Shown: piece after piece, positions 15,169 to 21,301 of the stretch
Layout of the letters: each line of letters begins with the position of its first letter
Position numbering within the stretch: the first letter of the stretch is position 1
Origin: Campylobacterales bacterium
GTDB taxonomy: Bacteria; Campylobacterota; Campylobacteria; Campylobacterales; JALSKU01
Length of the DNA: 48,082 nt
Direction of reading: 5' to 3'
Assembly: GCA_026988685.1 (NCBI GenBank)
Contig: JALSKU010000153.1
Location: forward strand, 1 to 48,082
The notes under the pieces: model-generated
The model's input: only the letters and a program-made list of their open reading frames with translations
Databases searched by the model: none
What the model was told of the DNA's origin: nothing
Program-made: the position numbers and the translations under genes

Positions 15169-15906
15169 ATGGATAGTGAAGATAGTATCGAATTAGACAG
15201 CGAGGAGTATTCTCCTGTCTATTTCGAACTTTCTGAACTCTCTTTGAATTTCTTAGAGGATTTTTTTAAAAATGAGATAGAGGTATTGGTTTTCAATACA
15301 AACTTTCTTCAAAATAATGGCTTTCAATATCAAAAGGATATAGACTTTACCCAGTTGTATAGATTTTTAAAAGTAGAATATAATACAATCTACTCCATAG
15401 ATCCCAAAGTTACAGATGCATTAATCGAAAAATTTTACAGAGACATAGAGTATCTTTTTAGATTTTACACCAAATTTAAAGAAAAAAGATCAAATATAAA
15501 CTCCGTATACAGCAATTTTTTGAACAAGAATGGAGGAGTAGCCTCTATAGGACAGAAAATATTTAAAAAAGATTTGGATAACAAGGAGATAGAGGAACTT
15601 GATGATATACTTAAAAGCGAGTTTGAAAGTAGTTTTTTAAAGGAGTATGAAGAGATAAAAAGCGAATTAAAAAGAGTTATAAATACCAAAAGTTACTATT
15701 TTGATGCTCTTTTATGGAAAGAGGCAAGAAAGAGCAGAAGCATTAATGATTTTTTTAAACAGTTGGTCAGATTAAATATCAAAAGTAGCAGTGATCTTAA
15801 TATAAAGTTATTTATCGTTCAGTATTTAAACAGTGTTGATTTAAATCATGTTAAAAATCCAAAGTGGCATGATTACCTTCAAAAGGTTATAAAGGTGATC
15901 GACTAA
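15169..15906 (+). CDS. Hypothetical protein
   Basis: 245-aa ORF located 5 nt after rny and coupled to the next ORF through a TAATG overlap. I recognised no motif. Confidence 0.5.
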   Translation: MDSEDSIELDSEEYSPVYFELSELSLNFLEDFFKNEIEVLVFNTNFLQNNGFQYQKDIDFTQLYRFLKVEYNTIYSIDPKVTDALIEKFYRDIEYLFRFYTKFKEKRSNINSVYSNFLNKNGGVASIGQKIFKKDLDNKEIEELDDILKSEFESSFLKEYEEIKSELKRVINTKSYYFDALLWKEARKSRSINDFFKQLVRLNIKSSSDLNIKLFIVQYLNSVDLNHVKNPKWHDYLQKVIKVID

Positions 15907-16430
15907 TGATAGTTAAAAATACCATCTATACCGAAAATGAGATAGCTAGAATTTTAGAAGCTGGTGAAAGACGCAAACTTACTGCTTCCGAAAAGAAGCT
16001 TTTGGAGATATATGACAAGATATATCTTTTTGATGGTATTGGTGAAGAGGATATCATAAAGATTGTTAAAAATGTCTCTTTTAAAAAGGTAAAAAAGGGA
16101 GATGTTATTTTACAAGAAGGGGAGAAATCACCCGAGATATATTTTATACTAACCGGAAAAGTTGTAGTAGTTACAGAAAAAAATAAGATAGTAGCCACGA
16201 TAGGCTCCGGATATATGTTTGGAGAGATGACATTTGTAACAAAACACTCAAGAAGTGCAACCATACTTAGCTATGATGATAGAACCGTGCTTTTATCGTT
16301 TGAAATAGATGAAGACAAATGTAGTGAAGTATATGCTTTTCCTTTTGTTAAGTTATATCAAAATATCGCACTTGATTTAGCTCGAAAGATAGAAAAAACA
16401 AATAAAAAAATTAAAGCTGGAAATAGATAA
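15906..16430 (+). CDS. Cyclic-nucleotide-binding (cNMP/Crp-type) domain protein with no recognisable output domain
   Basis: 174 aa. The segment GDVILQEGEKSPEIYFILTGKVVVV...GYMFGEMTFV...RSATI matches the cNMP-binding beta-barrel and phosphate-binding cassette pattern (FGE...R[ST]A). There is no C-terminal HTH. Confidence 0.65.
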   Translation: MIVKNTIYTENEIARILEAGERRKLTASEKKLLEIYDKIYLFDGIGEEDIIKIVKNVSFKKVKKGDVILQEGEKSPEIYFILTGKVVVVTEKNKIVATIGSGYMFGEMTFVTKHSRSATILSYDDRTVLLSFEIDEDKCSEVYAFPFVKLYQNIALDLARKIEKTNKKIKAGNR

Positions 16431-16443
16431 CCTTAAAAGATAA

Positions 16444-16470
16444 GGCCCTGTAAAACCAACTGTGTAAATC
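16444..16470. repeat. IS256-family left terminal inverted repeat
   Basis: GGCCCTGTAAAACCAACTGTGTAAATC. It matches the reverse complement of 17861-17887 except for two 1-nt indels and one mismatch. Confidence 0.8.
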
Positions 16471-16529
16471 CAAAAAAACAACCAGTATGATAAAATATAA
16501 ACTGGATAAACTAAGCAAGGATTTACACA

Positions 16530-17825
16530 ATGAGTATTTTAAATAAAGAAGAGTTAAGAAGACAGATAAAAGAAGGTAAAGGTATCAATATTGAAGATAT
16601 CTTAGATGAATTTAAAGGTATGCTCCAAGAAGTATACCAAACTGCTAGTGAAGTAGAGCTTACAGACCACTTAGGCTATAACAAAAACAATAAATCAGAT
16701 AATCCAAACTACCGCAATAGATATAATAAAAAAGACTAAAATCAAAGTATGGTGAAATAGATGTAGCAATTCCAAGAGATAGAGACTCTACTTTTGAACC
16801 CAAGCTAATAAAAAAGAGACAAACTCTAATAGAGGGGGCAGAAGATTTAATTCTGTCACTATATACCAAAGGTATGAGTGTAAGAGATATATAGCATCAT
16901 CTTGATGATCTATACGGTTATGAACTCTCAGAACAAACAATATCGAATATAACAGAGGCTATAATAGACAAAGCCAAAGAGTGGCAGAATCGTCCTTTAG
17001 AAGCAATCTATCCAATTATATTTATGGATGCTACCGTTTTAAAAATAAGAGTAGATAGAGTAGTTAAAAATATAGCTGCATATATAATGCTAGGAATTAC
17101 TCTTGATGGTAAAAAAGAGATTATTGGTATTTGGATAGGAGAGAATGAGACAAGTAAATACTGGTTAACACTTCTTAACGAACTAAAAAATAGAGGTGTT
17201 GAGGATGTTCTAATATTTGCCATAGATGGTCTTAATGGCTTTAATCAAGCAATAGAAGCGGTTTATCCCAAAGCTGAGATACTTCTGCTTGCAGTGATGT
17301 GAGCGTAGCGAAACGAAAAAGATGTATAGTGCATCGTCTGAGCGAAGCGACAACCCCGCAACGAAGTGAGGACAAATAAGAAGTTCTTTGAGATATGTAT
17401 CATGGAAAGATAGAAAAGCAGTGGCAAATGACTTAAGATCGATATATACTGCACCAACTGAAGAAGATGGGCAGCTTGCCCTTAGAGAATTTAATGATAT
17501 TTGGGGTAAAAAATATCCTCATATTACTCAATCTTGGCAATCCAACTGGGGTGAACTTGCAACTTTTTATAAATACCCAGATGCTATAAAAAAGTTGATT
17601 TATACCACAAATCCAATAGAATCGTTAAATTCATCAATCAAAAGAAGAACTAAATCCAAAGGCTCATTCCCTACGGTTGATTCAGCTTTTAAAATGCTAT
17701 ATCTTGCTACACAGGAGGTTCAAAACAAATGGAAGGTTAACAGTTTAAGAAATTGGAGTGAAATTTACCCTCAGCTTTCTCACAGAGAGTGCAAGCACAA
17801 GGCATATTTTTTCAAGATATTATGA
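16530..17825 (+). pseudogene. IS256-family (mutator-type) transposase, disrupted
   Basis: The pieces read as one IS256-like protein: ...HLGYNKNNKSDNPNYRNRYNKK / RLKSKYGEIDVAIPRDRDSTFEPKLIKKRQ...GMSVRDI*HHLDDLYG...PIIFMDATVLKIRVD...IFAIDGLNGFNQAIEAVYPKAEI / KRCIVH / QIRSSLRYVSWKDRK...IYTTNPIESLNSSIKRRTK. There are four lesions:
- a frame change at the A-run 16728-16733;
- an in-frame TAG at 16892-16894;
- an insertion of about 35 nt at 17282-17316;
- a 38-nt insertion at 17336-17373. Confidence 0.8.
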
Positions 17826-17860
17826 TAAAATATGCAAAGTAGATTTAGAGGGTGTGAGGT

Positions 17861-17887
17861 GGTTTACACAGTTTGGTTTACAGGGCC
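17861..17887. repeat. IS256-family right terminal inverted repeat
   Basis: GGTTTACACAGTTTGGTTTACAGGGCC, the reverse-complement partner of 16444-16470. Confidence 0.8.
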
Positions 17888-18040
17888 GCTACTTTTTTTC
17901 TTATTCTTATTTTGTTTTTCATTATTTTCTATCTTTCTTTCGGGGGCTATATCGTTACTGTCGCAAACCGGGCAACAACACCAATCAGCACTTCCACTCT
18001 TCCATCTAAAACCACAATTTATACAAACCAAAATATACAC
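17864..18040 (-). CDS. Small zinc-ribbon protein (58 codons as it stands); its 3' end is fused to or truncated by the IS256 right inverted repeat
   Basis: This ORF is not in the supplied track because it is too short. An AGGAG lies 6 nt upstream of the GTG at 18040. The translation is VYILVCINCGFRWKSGSADWCCCPVCDSNDIAPERKIENNEKQNKNKKKSS, followed by GPVNQTV* encoded by the IS repeat. CxxC...CPVC is a zinc-ribbon signature. A perfect TATAAT (minus strand, 18071-18076) lies about 30 nt upstream. Confidence 0.45.
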   Translation of the reverse strand: MYILVCINCGFRWKSGSADWCCCPVCDSNDIAPERKIENNEKQNKNKKKSSGPVNQTV

Positions 18041-18070: not shown

Positions 18071-18093
18071 ATTATATGACTATTTTTTGTCAA
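18071..18093 (-). promoter_or_regulatory. Putative promoter for the zinc-ribbon mini-ORF
   Basis: The minus strand reads TTGACAAAAAATAGTCATATAAT: a perfect -10 TATAAT (18071-18076) abutting a TGAC-N8-GTCA palindrome. It overlaps the stop region of the upstream CARF-HEPN gene. Confidence 0.3.
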
Positions 18094-19469
18094 TTTTTGT
18101 CGGCTATCAATTTTTTGTAGTTTTTTATCAGAGTGGATAGCTCTTTTTTGGCATTACTTACTTCGTAAGAACTGTTTCCATGAGAGAGGTTATTTCTTAA
18201 ATCTTCAACACGCTTTATGAGTTCGATAAGATCTTCATTATCTTGTTGCTTTAACTTTTCTATGATAATATTTTTTATATTTTCTTTTGAGTTTAGATTT
18301 TTCTGAGATAGTTCAAGTTTAAAACCTTCTAACTCAATCATACTTAAAATATGCTCTGGAATCTCTCTTTTTAGTTTCTGTTTTTTCTTTTGTAGAGATT
18401 TTTTTTGTGATGCGGTTAATGCTTTAGAAGGATTAAATAAATATGGCCCATGAAAATTTTCTTGATTTTTTATAATATTTTTTGATTGATGTGACAGTTC
18501 ATAGAGATTAAAATTATCTTTGCTTTTATATTCTTCAATATGCTCTTTTATTTTATTGTCTAGCTCCTCAAGTTTTTTAGCACAATATAGACCTACGGAT
18601 TCATTTAAAAGTGTTATAGAGTTAAGTAGGTATTCTCTATCTTTTAATAATTTGGAAAGTTCAAAATATTTTTTGTAATCCCGGTTATTTTTTAACGAAT
18701 ACAAATCTTCCAAATGTTTAATGACAGTATCGATATATGTAGAAAATGAAGCAATATGTCTATCTTTTTTTAGAGTTTTTAGCTCTACGATGCTTTTTTG
18801 TAATAGATTATCATCTCCTTCAAATAGAGTCTTTATGGAGTTTGCTAAAATATGTCCGGAGATTATTCTTAAATTATCAACAAGTTCTTGATACTTTTCG
18901 TTTTTAAAAACTACATGGTTGCCTATAGTGTAGTTGTCATTAAAATTTTTTAGCACAAAAGCGAGCTTCGACAATCCAATATATTCTGATAAATCTACAA
19001 TTTCATATCTCTTATTTTTGTCAATTTCCTTTGCAAAAAGTATATGCTCTATCTTTTCTGGATTGTCTATAGAGGCTATTATGATATTAATAATCATTAA
19101 AATTGGTATATGTCTAAAACCATGAGTCAAATCTACGATAAATGTTTCATATCTATCATCTTTTAATACTTTTGCCAACTCTTGAAATATTTGATTGTAG
19201 TCGGTATCATCTTTTATCTCTATCGCATTTTCCATCACTTCCGTATTATAATCTATACTCTTAAGGGTCTTTTTTTGTTGCTCTTTTGTCTCTTTTGTTG
19301 AGATTGGTATGATTTCGCAATCAGGGAAAATATCCATAAGAAGAGGTAAAGTATTTATGTGCTCTATCTCTTTATTGTCGCTTAATATCTCGAGATTTTT
19401 AGAAAATGTATATTTTGCTCTATTTTTTCCTCCTACCGTTCCCAATATGGTTATAACTGCTTTTCTCAT
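18090..19469 (-). CDS. Stand-alone Csx1/Csm6-like protein: N-terminal CARF domain (DxTHG / TM1812-like family) and C-terminal HEPN RNase motif
   Basis: 459 aa. The N-terminus (MRKAVITILGTVGGKNRAKYTF) has the CARF beta1-Gly-loop pattern (xLGTxxx...Y). The exact DxTHG signature is present: FIVDLTHGFRHIP. A long Lys/Glu/Asn-rich helical middle region follows. The C-terminus carries LIKRVEDLRNNLSHGNSS, which fits the HEPN Rx4H motif in its R-N-x-x-x-H form, as in Csx1/Csm6. An AAGGTG Shine-Dalgarno lies 5 nt upstream of the ATG. Confidence 0.7.
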   Translation of the reverse strand: MRKAVITILGTVGGKNRAKYTFSKNLEILSDNKEIEHINTLPLLMDIFPDCEIIPISTKETKEQQKKTLKSIDYNTEVMENAIEIKDDTDYNQIFQELAKVLKDDRYETFIVDLTHGFRHIPILMIINIIIASIDNPEKIEHILFAKEIDKNKRYEIVDLSEYIGLSKLAFVLKNFNDNYTIGNHVVFKNEKYQELVDNLRIISGHILANSIKTLFEGDDNLLQKSIVELKTLKKDRHIASFSTYIDTVIKHLEDLYSLKNNRDYKKYFELSKLLKDREYLLNSITLLNESVGLYCAKKLEELDNKIKEHIEEYKSKDNFNLYELSHQSKNIIKNQENFHGPYLFNPSKALTASQKKSLQKKKQKLKREIPEHILSMIELEGFKLELSQKNLNSKENIKNIIIEKLKQQDNEDLIELIKRVEDLRNNLSHGNSSYEVSNAKKELSTLIKNYKKLIADKN

Positions 19470-20610
19470 TTGTCACCTTTGCAATAAGATAGTATTTTTT
19501 ATTTGCAAACTCTCTTATAAACTGATCATTTTCCCATTTGCCTTTAATAATTCTTCCGTTATTATATCTAAAAATACCATACCCTTCTCTTTTATCATTT
19601 TTAAAATCTCCTCTGTACTGCTCACCGTTTGTATATTTTAATTTTCCATATCTGTGAAATAATCCGTTTTTCCAATACCCTGTGTAACAATCATAGTAAA
19701 CATTTCCACTTTTTAAGTCATAGTTTTTTTTGTTAAATTTATAAATTCCAAACCCATTTCTCAATCCATCTTCAAAACAACCAATATATATATCTCCGTT
19801 ATGAAATATTGTTTTTCCCTTGGCAAAAGGTAGCCCGTTTTTTAGTGAGCCTCTGTATCGATCTCCATTTGCATATTGAATATTTACTCCAAAATAATAA
19901 TAGTTACCATTCATATATTTATAATTTTTGATTTGGGTTTGCTCGATCCTGTTTATGATGGTTTCGTTAAAATTTGCAACTATATCTATATTGTATCTCA
20001 TAAATGGTTGAGCTTTCATACCAAATACACTATATAGTGTTTTTAAAGTTTGGTAAGGGTCTTTATTGTCTTTTCTATTTTTTAAAATTGAGATAATTTC
20101 TTCACATTGAGTGTCAATCGTATATTTTAAAAATATTCCGTATGCGGTTAAGTCTACCATCTGCATCTTTAGTAACGGTATCTCTTTGCTTAGAGTATCT
20201 ATTTTTTTATCATGTGCACTCCTGTCTCTATATTCCCCATATAGAGCTAAAGCTATTATAATTGATGCTAATGTAAAAGTGATAGTGCTATCAAAGAAGA
20301 AAGAAGCTATTAATGCAATTATAATTATCCAAAAGTAGGTAGAAAAGGAGTAAGAAGGCTTAAAACTATTTCTCTTTTTATATTCAAAACTATCATATAT
20401 CCACTGTTTTACTGTGGGGATATTACTTAGGTCTATTTTAGAGATATCGTTATCGTTGACATATAGTTGTTGAAAAAGTTTTGCGATATAGGTATTGGTA
20501 TTAATTGCATCACTTCTTTCCCTGTACTCTTCGGCATCATTTTTTATCTTATCAAGCTTATTATTGACTTCTGAAACTTCAAAGTATGTTAACATGTCAA
20601 ATAATTCCAT
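19420..20610 (-). CDS. Membrane protein with a 2-TM hairpin and C-terminal MORN repeats
   Basis: 396 aa. Its parts are:
- a soluble N-terminus of about 90 aa;
- the hydrophobic hairpin YFWIIIIALIASFFFDSTITFTLASIIIALALYG;
- a region of about 110 aa that I could not assign;
- 4-5 MORN-type repeats (YRGSLKNGLPFAKGKTIF / YIGCFEDGLRNGFGIYKF / YTGYWKNGLFHRYGKLKY / YRGDFKNDKREGYGIFRY / IKGKWENDQF).
An AAGGAG Shine-Dalgarno lies 6 nt upstream. The 3' end overlaps the CARF-HEPN gene by 50 nt. Confidence 0.7.
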   Translation of the reverse strand: MELFDMLTYFEVSEVNNKLDKIKNDAEEYRERSDAINTNTYIAKLFQQLYVNDNDISKIDLSNIPTVKQWIYDSFEYKKRNSFKPSYSFSTYFWIIIIALIASFFFDSTITFTLASIIIALALYGEYRDRSAHDKKIDTLSKEIPLLKMQMVDLTAYGIFLKYTIDTQCEEIISILKNRKDNKDPYQTLKTLYSVFGMKAQPFMRYNIDIVANFNETIINRIEQTQIKNYKYMNGNYYYFGVNIQYANGDRYRGSLKNGLPFAKGKTIFHNGDIYIGCFEDGLRNGFGIYKFNKKNYDLKSGNVYYDCYTGYWKNGLFHRYGKLKYTNGEQYRGDFKNDKREGYGIFRYNNGRIIKGKWENDQFIREFANKKYYLIAKVTNEKSSYNHIGNGRRKK

Positions 20611-20680: not shown

Positions 20681-21301
20681 CTATAACCCCTCAAGTATAA
20701 TATTATAAAGATTTTCTACTTCATTATCATTAAGTAGGATGGAGTTTTTTTCGTCGAAAAAGAGCTCTATCTTTTTTTTGTCAAATCCATTTTCGCTTTT
20801 TAGACAAGTTGAACAGGCTGGAAGAAAGGCTCTGGTTAAGACCACTTTGCTTTCAATATTTTTTTCGCAGATGAAGCAGGAAAAATCGTTATGGAGTCTT
20901 CCTTCAAACTCCAAAAGTTTTGCGTATGACTCTATGACAACTCTTTTGGGGTGAGATTTTTCGAGGTAGAGGGATGTCTCTTCAAGTAGTTTATAGTAAA
21001 AACTATCTACCTCATTGACATCTCTTAGGTGCTTAAAAAGAAGCTGTAAAAATTGCTGCCAGATGTAGTATCTCTCCCTTTTTAGAAGCCATTTAAAGTT
21101 TAGTAAAGAGACATTTCTTAGTTGCTTTAAATTTTCTCTGTTTGTCGGGTGTGCTTCGAAGTCTATCTTGTAGCCTAGCAGAAGGTTGGAGTGTCTTGCT
21201 CCATAAAATCTATATAGTATTTTTATCCTGTTTTCGGTAAGAATAGTTACCAAAAGGTCTTCATCTCTAACTTTTTGAGTGTTTAGTATATAGCCTTGCA
21301 T
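20681..21301 (-). CDS. recO: DNA repair protein RecO (short epsilonproteobacterial form)
   Basis: 206 aa. MQGYILNTQKVRDEDLLVTILTENRIKILYRFYGARHS is a typical RecO OB-fold N-terminus, and a C-terminal Cys cluster is present (CFICEKN...CSTC). Confidence 0.75.
   Translation of the reverse strand: MQGYILNTQKVRDEDLLVTILTENRIKILYRFYGARHSNLLLGYKIDFEAHPTNRENLKQLRNVSLLNFKWLLKRERYYIWQQFLQLLFKHLRDVNEVDSFYYKLLEETSLYLEKSHPKRVVIESYAKLLEFEGRLHNDFSCFICEKNIESKVVLTRAFLPACSTCLKSENGFDKKKIELFFDEKNSILLNDNEVENLYNIILEGL

Follow-up and report, generated by a model that had tools for sequence, protein, structure and literature searches.

A csx1-type CARF-HEPN gene standing apart from CRISPR-Cas genes in a Campylobacterales contig

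The DNA analysed here, referred to as the window, is a stretch of 48,082 nucleotides from a Campylobacterales bacterium (GenBank assembly GCA_026988685.1, contig JALSKU010000153.1, positions 1 to 48,082). Its minus strand carries a gene, csx1, whose product is predicted to join an N-terminal CARF domain to a C-terminal HEPN domain. Csx1 proteins are signal-activated RNases whose genes normally lie inside type III CRISPR loci. The copy in the window appears intact in its sequence and is separated, across the whole window, from any gene of such a locus. The gene and its parts are located as follows.

18090..19469, minus strand: csx1, encoding a 459-residue CARF-HEPN protein of the Csx1 / TM1812-DxTHG type, predicted from an ATG-to-stop open reading frame, profiles, an AlphaFold2 model and Foldseek.
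18930..19469, minus strand: predicted CARF domain (Rossmann-like beta/alpha), about residues 1-180, from the model strands and sub-threshold matches to TIGR02221 and Csa3_N.
19428..19454, minus strand: beta1-loop motif ITILGTVGG, residues 6-14, in which T7, L9 and G10 are conserved.
19110..19133, minus strand: DLTHGFRH, residues 113-120, the DxTHG signature of the predicted CARF pocket, from TIGR02549 and its invariance.
18093..18902, minus strand: all-helical C-terminal part, about residues 190-459, consisting of linker helices and the predicted HEPN domain, from DSSP and the match to structure 8y7f.
18180..18197, minus strand: predicted HEPN catalytic motif R425-N-N-L-S-H430 (Rx4H), with invariant arginine and histidine.

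The csx1 reading frame comprises 1380 nt without an internal stop, in DNA of 28% GC, and a Shine-Dalgarno-like AAGGTG ends 4 nt 5' of the ATG. Because the encoded N-terminus, MRKAVITILG, agrees with the homologue consensus MxKAVITILG, the assigned start is taken to be correct, and a 50-nt overlap with the upstream open reading frame (19420-20610) is therefore taken to be real. The original prediction, made from the letters of the DNA alone, had named three sequence hallmarks, each of which was located in this frame. The ITILGTVGG string occupies residues 6-14, the D-L-T-H-G-F-R string expected at about residue 113 was found as D-L-T-H-G-F-R-H at residues 113-120, and R-N-N-L-S-H spans residues 425-430, where H430, counted from the C-terminus, is residue 30 rather than approximately 35.

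Profile searches related the protein to Csx1 over essentially its entire length. The PADLOC profile CARF2--CARF_HEPN (PDLC01828) was matched with E=2.5e-100 between csx1 residues 3-459 and profile positions 1-392 of 394, and the PADLOC profile Csx1/Csm6 (PDLC01032) gave another full-length match (E=7.3e-33), with many weaker Csx1 and CARF profiles below; the PADLOC models come without curated cutoffs. The NCBIfam model TIGR02549 (DxTHG domain) was passed with 23.3 bits against a cutoff of 21. TIGR02221 (cas_TM1812 equivalog) was matched over residues 60-178 only, and its score of 32.3 bits (E=9.7e-8) missed the curated cutoff of 76.25; as judged by sequence, the csx1 product is a relative of this equivalog and not a member. 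Pfam models for CARF-type domains (Csa3_N, over residues 52-133, as well as Csx1_CARF and RtcR) matched the window protein below their gathering scores, and the Pfam HEPN models did not match it. Across the family, Csa3_N is weakly matched by 33 of 52 members and any HEPN model by 2 of 52. Thus, among the profile models that had been proposed as a check, TIGR02549 gave a match above its cutoff, whereas TIGR02221 and the Pfam CARF models remained below theirs and Pfam HEPN gave none. Searches of the Protein Data Bank by sequence and by profile yielded nothing relevant to the window protein, and only a fold search returned matches.

For the fold search, an AlphaFold2 model was derived from a 52-sequence alignment, with a mean predicted local distance difference test (pLDDT) value of 87.4 and a predicted template modelling score (pTM) of 0.75. 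According to DSSP, the model has strands at residues 3-8, 18-22, 35-37, 52-57, 109-113, 140-150 and 154-159, and only helices from residue 191 onwards. The top Foldseek matches were the Marinitoga sp. Csx1-Crn2 structures 8Y6Z and 8Y7G, in the apo form and bound to cyclic tetra-adenylate (cA4), with E~1e-9 and template modelling (TM) scores of 0.50-0.55, and Sulfolobus islandicus Csx1 (SisCsx1, 6QZT) was matched with E=5e-8. The CARF-truncated Csx1-Crn2 structure 8y7f was matched over 333 columns, and CARF domains of Thermus Csm6, Card1 and Cam1 were found at lower ranks. Csx1-Crn2 and SisCsx1 share with the modelled protein a CARF domain, a helical linker and a HEPN domain with an Rx4H motif near the C-terminus, and they align with it over the full length (E 1e-9 to 5e-8, TM 0.41-0.55), yet at only 14-16% sequence identity. 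Unlike Csx1-Crn2, the window protein has no Crn2 fusion, and it has no adjoining type III locus.

The CARF assignment of the N-terminal part, including its beta1-loop and DxTHG motifs, is thus supported by TIGR02549, the PADLOC CARF2 profiles, the predicted beta/alpha fold of residues 1-180 and the invariance of the motifs. A C-terminal HEPN domain with an Rx4-6H motif is indicated by the motif itself, the PADLOC profile and the modelled fold, not by Pfam. In architecture, profile, fold and motifs the window protein is therefore classified as a Csx1-type CARF-HEPN protein and a predicted RNase, and the initial description of a Csx1/Csm6-like protein of the DxTHG/TM1812 type was borne out by the full-length PADLOC matches, the TIGR02549 score and the Csx1 structures as best fold matches. 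A helical region of about 270 residues between the motifs had been considered longer than expected for Csx1. This did not hold, as some 60 of those residues belong to the CARF domain and the remainder is the usual linker and HEPN domain; the region is of normal size because family members are 406-534 residues long and the matched SisCsx1 chain has 454 residues, compared with 459 here.

Csm6 was tried as an alternative identity (CARF, 6H, HEPN) and rejected. Csm6 proteins (Thermus thermophilus 5FSH and 8JBC; 6O6Z) likewise combine a CARF sensor activated by cyclic oligoadenylate (cOA) with a HEPN RNase, but their structures are weaker fold matches (E 1e-5 to 2e-4, TM 0.23-0.34) and rank below those of Csx1 (E 1e-5 vs 1e-9; TM 0.34 or less). 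The best PADLOC profiles are CARF2/Csx1 and not Csm6-specific, and the DxTHG signature is a feature of Csx1/TM1812 proteins.

Conservation was assessed in an alignment of 52 homologues with 33-56% identity. The residues D113, H116, G117, F118, R119, H120, R425, N426, L428, H430 and N432 are invariant, both DxTHGFRH and R-N-x-L-x-H-x-N are kept in 52 of 52 homologues, and T7, L9 and G10 show conservation of 90% or more. The proposal that the HEPN motif might be fortuitous, which a loss of its arginine or histidine in close homologues would have indicated, is contradicted by the invariance of R425 and H430. The window protein itself holds 23 of the 23 invariant family positions. Among the 67 columns with conservation of 90% or more it differs in five, each time conservatively (Y37H, I158V, A167S, I249V and A429S), and its deviation counts at the 80% and 70% thresholds equal the family median. 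Its mean identity to its clade is 52%, whereas clade members share 58% among themselves, and a search of 5.8 billion proteins gave no relative closer than 56% identity. As far as the sequence can tell, csx1 in the window has no sign of decay.

The homologues are restricted to Campylobacterota (Sulfurovum, Campylobacter concisus and relatives, Arcobacter, Nautiliaceae and Helicobacteraceae), and no Csx1 homologue was present in a phage collection. Their identity to the window protein ranges from 27 to 56%, and public databases name them "TM1812 family / DxTHG motif CRISPR-associated protein". The genomic surroundings of these homologues were surveyed in tblastn searches, for which Cas and accessory proteins were taken from three locus types, combined with a scan for CRISPR repeats. 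The surveyed loci are not all independent, as they include many C. concisus strains and a few duplicates of one contig. Among the 57 loci flanked by 8 kb or more, a core cas gene or a CRISPR array occurs in 53 and one or more conserved accessory genes in all 57; among the 37 loci flanked by 15 kb or more, the corresponding counts are 36 and 37. The closest homologues (45-56% identity) each adjoin RAMP, Cas10, Csx20 or WCX genes. In locus L006, csx1 is accompanied by Cas6, Cas10/Csm1, Csm2-5, Cas1, Cas2 and an array, and this Cas10/Csm1 matches TIGR02578 with 377 bits and contains GGDD. RAMPs, Cas1/Cas2 or the usual accessory genes lie beside csx1 in L003, L088, L089, L091, L097 and L098, and an annotated example from a cultured organism is the type III-A locus on the Arcobacter cloacae plasmid pACLO. 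Loci of the C. concisus type have a divergent, minimal Cas10 and RAMPs immediately 5' of csx1.

The most common neighbour is a homologue of Csx20 (NF040559, E=1e-43); in 41 of 65 loci, no more than 700 nt separate it from csx1. Experiments have established Csx20 as a ring nuclease specific for cA4 (PMC12409355). In 45 of the 65 family loci, a gene of the WCX/WYL type is found no further than 2.5 kb from csx1 (for example L006 8408-9976; L088 5059-6633; L089 5435-7018; L096 11676-12680; L097 1704-2663). The WCX/WYL gene frequently carries an AAA_33/KTI12-like P-loop kinase domain as a fusion, and Csx20, Csx1 and WCX form a conserved accessory trio. The Cas10-like protein of a C. concisus-type locus (L096, 2122-3525) has 467 residues with palm2 only, lacks an HD domain and shows SGDD where the cyclase motif is canonically GGDD; C. 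concisus-type loci with such an SGDD protein retain Csx1 and the Csx20 ring nuclease alongside it.

The other genes of this Campylobacterota Csx1 clade remain very closely tied to their loci. TM1812/DxTHG proteins of Campylobacter, Sulfurovum and Arcobacter (TIGR02221, TIGR02549), which belong to the same family as the window protein, are encoded in type III loci with Csx20 and WCX genes as neighbours, whereas the window copy, which passes the DxTHG model and misses the TIGR02221 cutoff, is not. A repeat scan of the 48-kb window detected no CRISPR-like array, and no Rfam match was obtained. The tblastn search of the window with 24 Cas and accessory queries from the three locus types found csx1 only, with no remnants of a decayed type III locus, and no cas gene, accessory gene or array is located in the 18.1 kb on one side of csx1 or in the 28.6 kb on the other. 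The window instead holds housekeeping genes (pglB, upp, radA, ftsY, rny, recO, gltBD, accD, uvrA, polA, dnaJ, recR, aroE, trpE and glyA), and its few open reading frames without a Pfam match did not match any defence system either. By its PolA sequence, the contig falls among uncultured Campylobacterota, where the nearest named matches, from metagenome-assembled genomes, are 62-65% identical. The original statement that csx1 has no CRISPR-Cas context thus stands for the entire 48-kb window; it applies to this contig and not to the genome as a whole. Among the surveyed loci the window copy alone is isolated from cas, Csx20 and WCX genes, and none of the 57 well-flanked loci is an orphan. Orphans therefore appear rare in this Csx1 family, and the isolation is unusual because essentially every homologue examined lies in a type III locus.

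Together with two neighbouring genes, csx1 forms a 2.8-kb islet between recO and an insertion sequence (IS). The surrounding features are listed here.

20681..21301, minus strand: recO, a conserved gene that forms the other edge of the islet (RecO_N_2, E=8.9e-31).
19420..20610, minus strand: 396-residue protein in which a hydrophobic helical hairpin is predicted (about residues 89-125), with MORN repeats towards the C-terminus (Pfam MORN, E=3.9e-14).
17864..18040, minus strand: 58-residue Zn-ribbon open reading frame (CxxC...CxCPxC), 3' of csx1, which is also a gene call in two other assemblies.
16435..17896, no strand assigned: degraded element of the IS256/Mutator family, with 34-nt inverted repeats and a match to Transposase_mut (E=1.5e-30) on one fragment.

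The 34-nt terminal inverted repeats of the IS (16435-16468 and 17863-17896) are 82% complementary. Its transposase gene is not intact: a frameshift lies near 16745, an in-frame TAG near 16893, and about 85 nt around the conserved RCIVH region (17300-17385) are disrupted. In two other assemblies, contigs of the same strain stop inside the IS, as expected for a repeated element, suggesting that it is present in multiple copies in the community. On the opposite side, the contig of a sibling strain (L093) is 94.5% identical in nucleotides through gltB-recO and loses similarity at position 20715 of the window, at the 3' end of recO. Past recO, genes for a haem-binding protein, an ABC ATPase and a PemK toxin (L093, 1780-3440) replace MORN-csx1. 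Because unrelated genes follow at this point, the recO 3' flank is regarded as strain-variable and the MORN, csx1 and Zn-ribbon genes as an islet, which marks the flank as a hot spot for accessory genes. An attempted comparison with an empty site did not succeed: the sibling contig has other genes there, and a metagenome scan with a gene of the left flank gave a single contig of 1.1 kb. The GC content is 28.6% in the islet and 34.4% in the window. Low GC content as a sign of recent transfer was considered and rejected, as the GC content of csx1 homologues is on average 6 points lower than that of their loci, and the GC3 of 0.24 is within the range of the housekeeping genes.

Taken together, we consider it somewhat better than an even possibility that csx1 encodes a functional cA4-activated HEPN RNase that has been separated from its type III locus and depends on a Cas10 elsewhere in the genome. 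By analogy with the solved Csx1 proteins, a homodimer would form, and a cyclic oligoadenylate would bind the CARF pocket built around the DxTHGFRH loop. We infer cA4 to be the most likely activator because Csx20, a cA4 ring nuclease, is the most common neighbour in the family and the best fold matches are cA4-dependent Csx1 proteins. With the ligand bound, the HEPN site formed by R425 and H430 would be switched on to cleave RNA non-specifically, and an infected cell would be slowed or killed. The gene would have parted from its type III locus plausibly by an IS-associated rearrangement, and its product would be activated in trans only, by a Cas10 cyclase encoded outside the 48-kb contig.

Several observations weigh against this interpretation. 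No Cas10, other cyclase or ring nuclease is visible in the 46.7 kb flanking csx1, and the trans-acting Cas10 is an assumption. The curated whole-protein models remained below threshold (TIGR02221 with 32 vs 76 bits; no Pfam gathering score reached). The Y37H exchange replaces a residue with conservation of 90% or more, located where a CARF beta-strand ends, and it could alter ligand binding. The arrangement in which csx1 overlaps the upstream MORN gene by 50 nt was seen nowhere else and could hint at a new partnership. With regard to the suggested relocation, the frameshifts in the transposase could stem from misassembly of a repeated element, and the low GC content (28%) is a family trait and as such no proof of recent transfer.

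The most serious competitor is that csx1 was cut off by rearrangement or locus loss in a genome without cOA and now encodes an intact but silent RNase. Complete isolation from cas, Csx20 and WCX partners, unique among the surveyed loci, is what such a stranded gene would show, as are a position in a strain-variable islet beside a dead IS and a divergence from the clade that exceeds the divergence within it (52 vs 58% mean identity). On the other hand, a gene left without function would not be expected to lack stops, frameshifts and radical changes at conserved positions, or to have kept intact catalytic and pocket motifs and a good ribosome-binding site. An unselected frame of 1380 nt in AT-rich DNA should gain stops quickly, as the adjacent transposase did. 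The conserved, intact frame beside a decayed transposase thus argues for continued selection on csx1, and we consider a silent relic to be possible but clearly the less likely explanation.

Given its overlap with the MORN gene, csx1 could alternatively have been repurposed as part of a stand-alone module, in which Csx1 and the overlapping MORN membrane protein, perhaps with the Zn-ribbon protein, would serve in CRISPR-independent defence or stress and respond to a ligand not made by Cas10. The 50-nt overlap and the shared strand suggest co-transcription of the two genes, and Y37H alters a conserved CARF position. The MORN protein, moreover, is a near-singleton: 5.8 billion proteins include one near-full-length homologue, which has 32% identity and TPR repeats and is encoded on a 3.6-kb contig without Csx1. 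However, the Csx1-MORN pairing occurs in one lineage, and the MORN gene was never found next to Csx1 in about 90 other loci. Neither the MORN nor the Zn-ribbon open reading frame matches a defence profile, and the model of the MORN protein is confident only at residues 235-370, leaving the N-terminal 230 residues without a confident fold. The CARF pocket motifs are also the same as in the CRISPR-embedded relatives. Repurposing is therefore considered improbable, and its fuller version, in which Csx1 was captured with the MORN protein (perhaps also the Zn-ribbon protein) and its CARF domain answers a nucleotide signal of non-Cas10 origin as a stand-alone defence or stress switch, is slightly more doubtful still. 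Least probable by our estimate is an alternative that the original prediction had offered, an RNase toxin that is constitutive or otherwise regulated and has a degenerate CARF domain. The lack of a local ligand source and of a ring nuclease speaks for it, but the DxTHGFRH and beta1-loop residues of the CARF domain are intact, no antitoxin-like partner is evident and chromosomal maintenance of an unregulated HEPN RNase would be difficult.

The gene in the window is an addition to the known Csx1/TM1812-DxTHG family, and orphan CARF and type III accessory genes are already documented. CARF homologues are abundant outside CRISPR-Cas systems (PMC12669027), and about 25% of csx15 genes are orphans (PMC13148439). 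Csx15 of Pseudomonas fluorescens, like csx1 here, is encoded by a type III accessory gene away from any CRISPR locus, but it is a cA4 sponge or ring nuclease (PMC13148439), whereas the window protein is a predicted RNase effector. The window copy is unusual solely in being isolated, as the rest of its family stays strictly with its loci, and it carries little weight for new biology. It nevertheless provides a clear-cut case, found in nature, of a type III effector gene that stands apart from its Cas10, its ring nuclease and the other partners, and could be used to ask whether orphan effectors still respond to cA4 made elsewhere. As the family has no solved structure that is detectable by sequence, it is also a reasonable structural target.

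Two further sets of genes flank the IS. The Zn-ribbon open reading frame has no family match, and its last codons, about 11, extend into the right inverted repeat of the IS. In about 100 loci its sole, weak look-alike is a 41-residue open reading frame (L057, 78-203), which belongs to an Arcobacter type III locus and lies immediately 5' of csx20. The Zn-ribbon open reading frame may be a small unannotated accessory gene that travelled with csx1. Just outside the IS ends lies a 31-nt inverted similarity of 77% (16384-16414 vs 17907-17937), whose two arms encode a similar Lys-rich peptide in the C-terminal tail of a cyclic nucleotide monophosphate (cNMP)-binding protein and in the tail of the Zn-ribbon open reading frame. 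It may have arisen by chance in A-rich DNA or may be a trace of an IS-mediated inversion.

On the other side of the IS, at 15169-16430 on the plus strand and following the gene for RNase Y, a 245-residue protein without a family match (p245) is encoded with a start/stop overlap to a stand-alone cNMP-binding protein of 174 residues. The latter matches PADLOC Pycsar-effector (PycTIR) profiles with E~1e-16, in the cNMP-binding domain only. A role for this neighbour as a Pycsar effector within the islet was considered and rejected, as the match is limited to the cNMP domain and the pair of genes, which adjoins rny in the window, is conserved in a relative (L100). Because the two genes are conserved as a pair there, they are regarded as resident, probably regulatory genes outside the islet.

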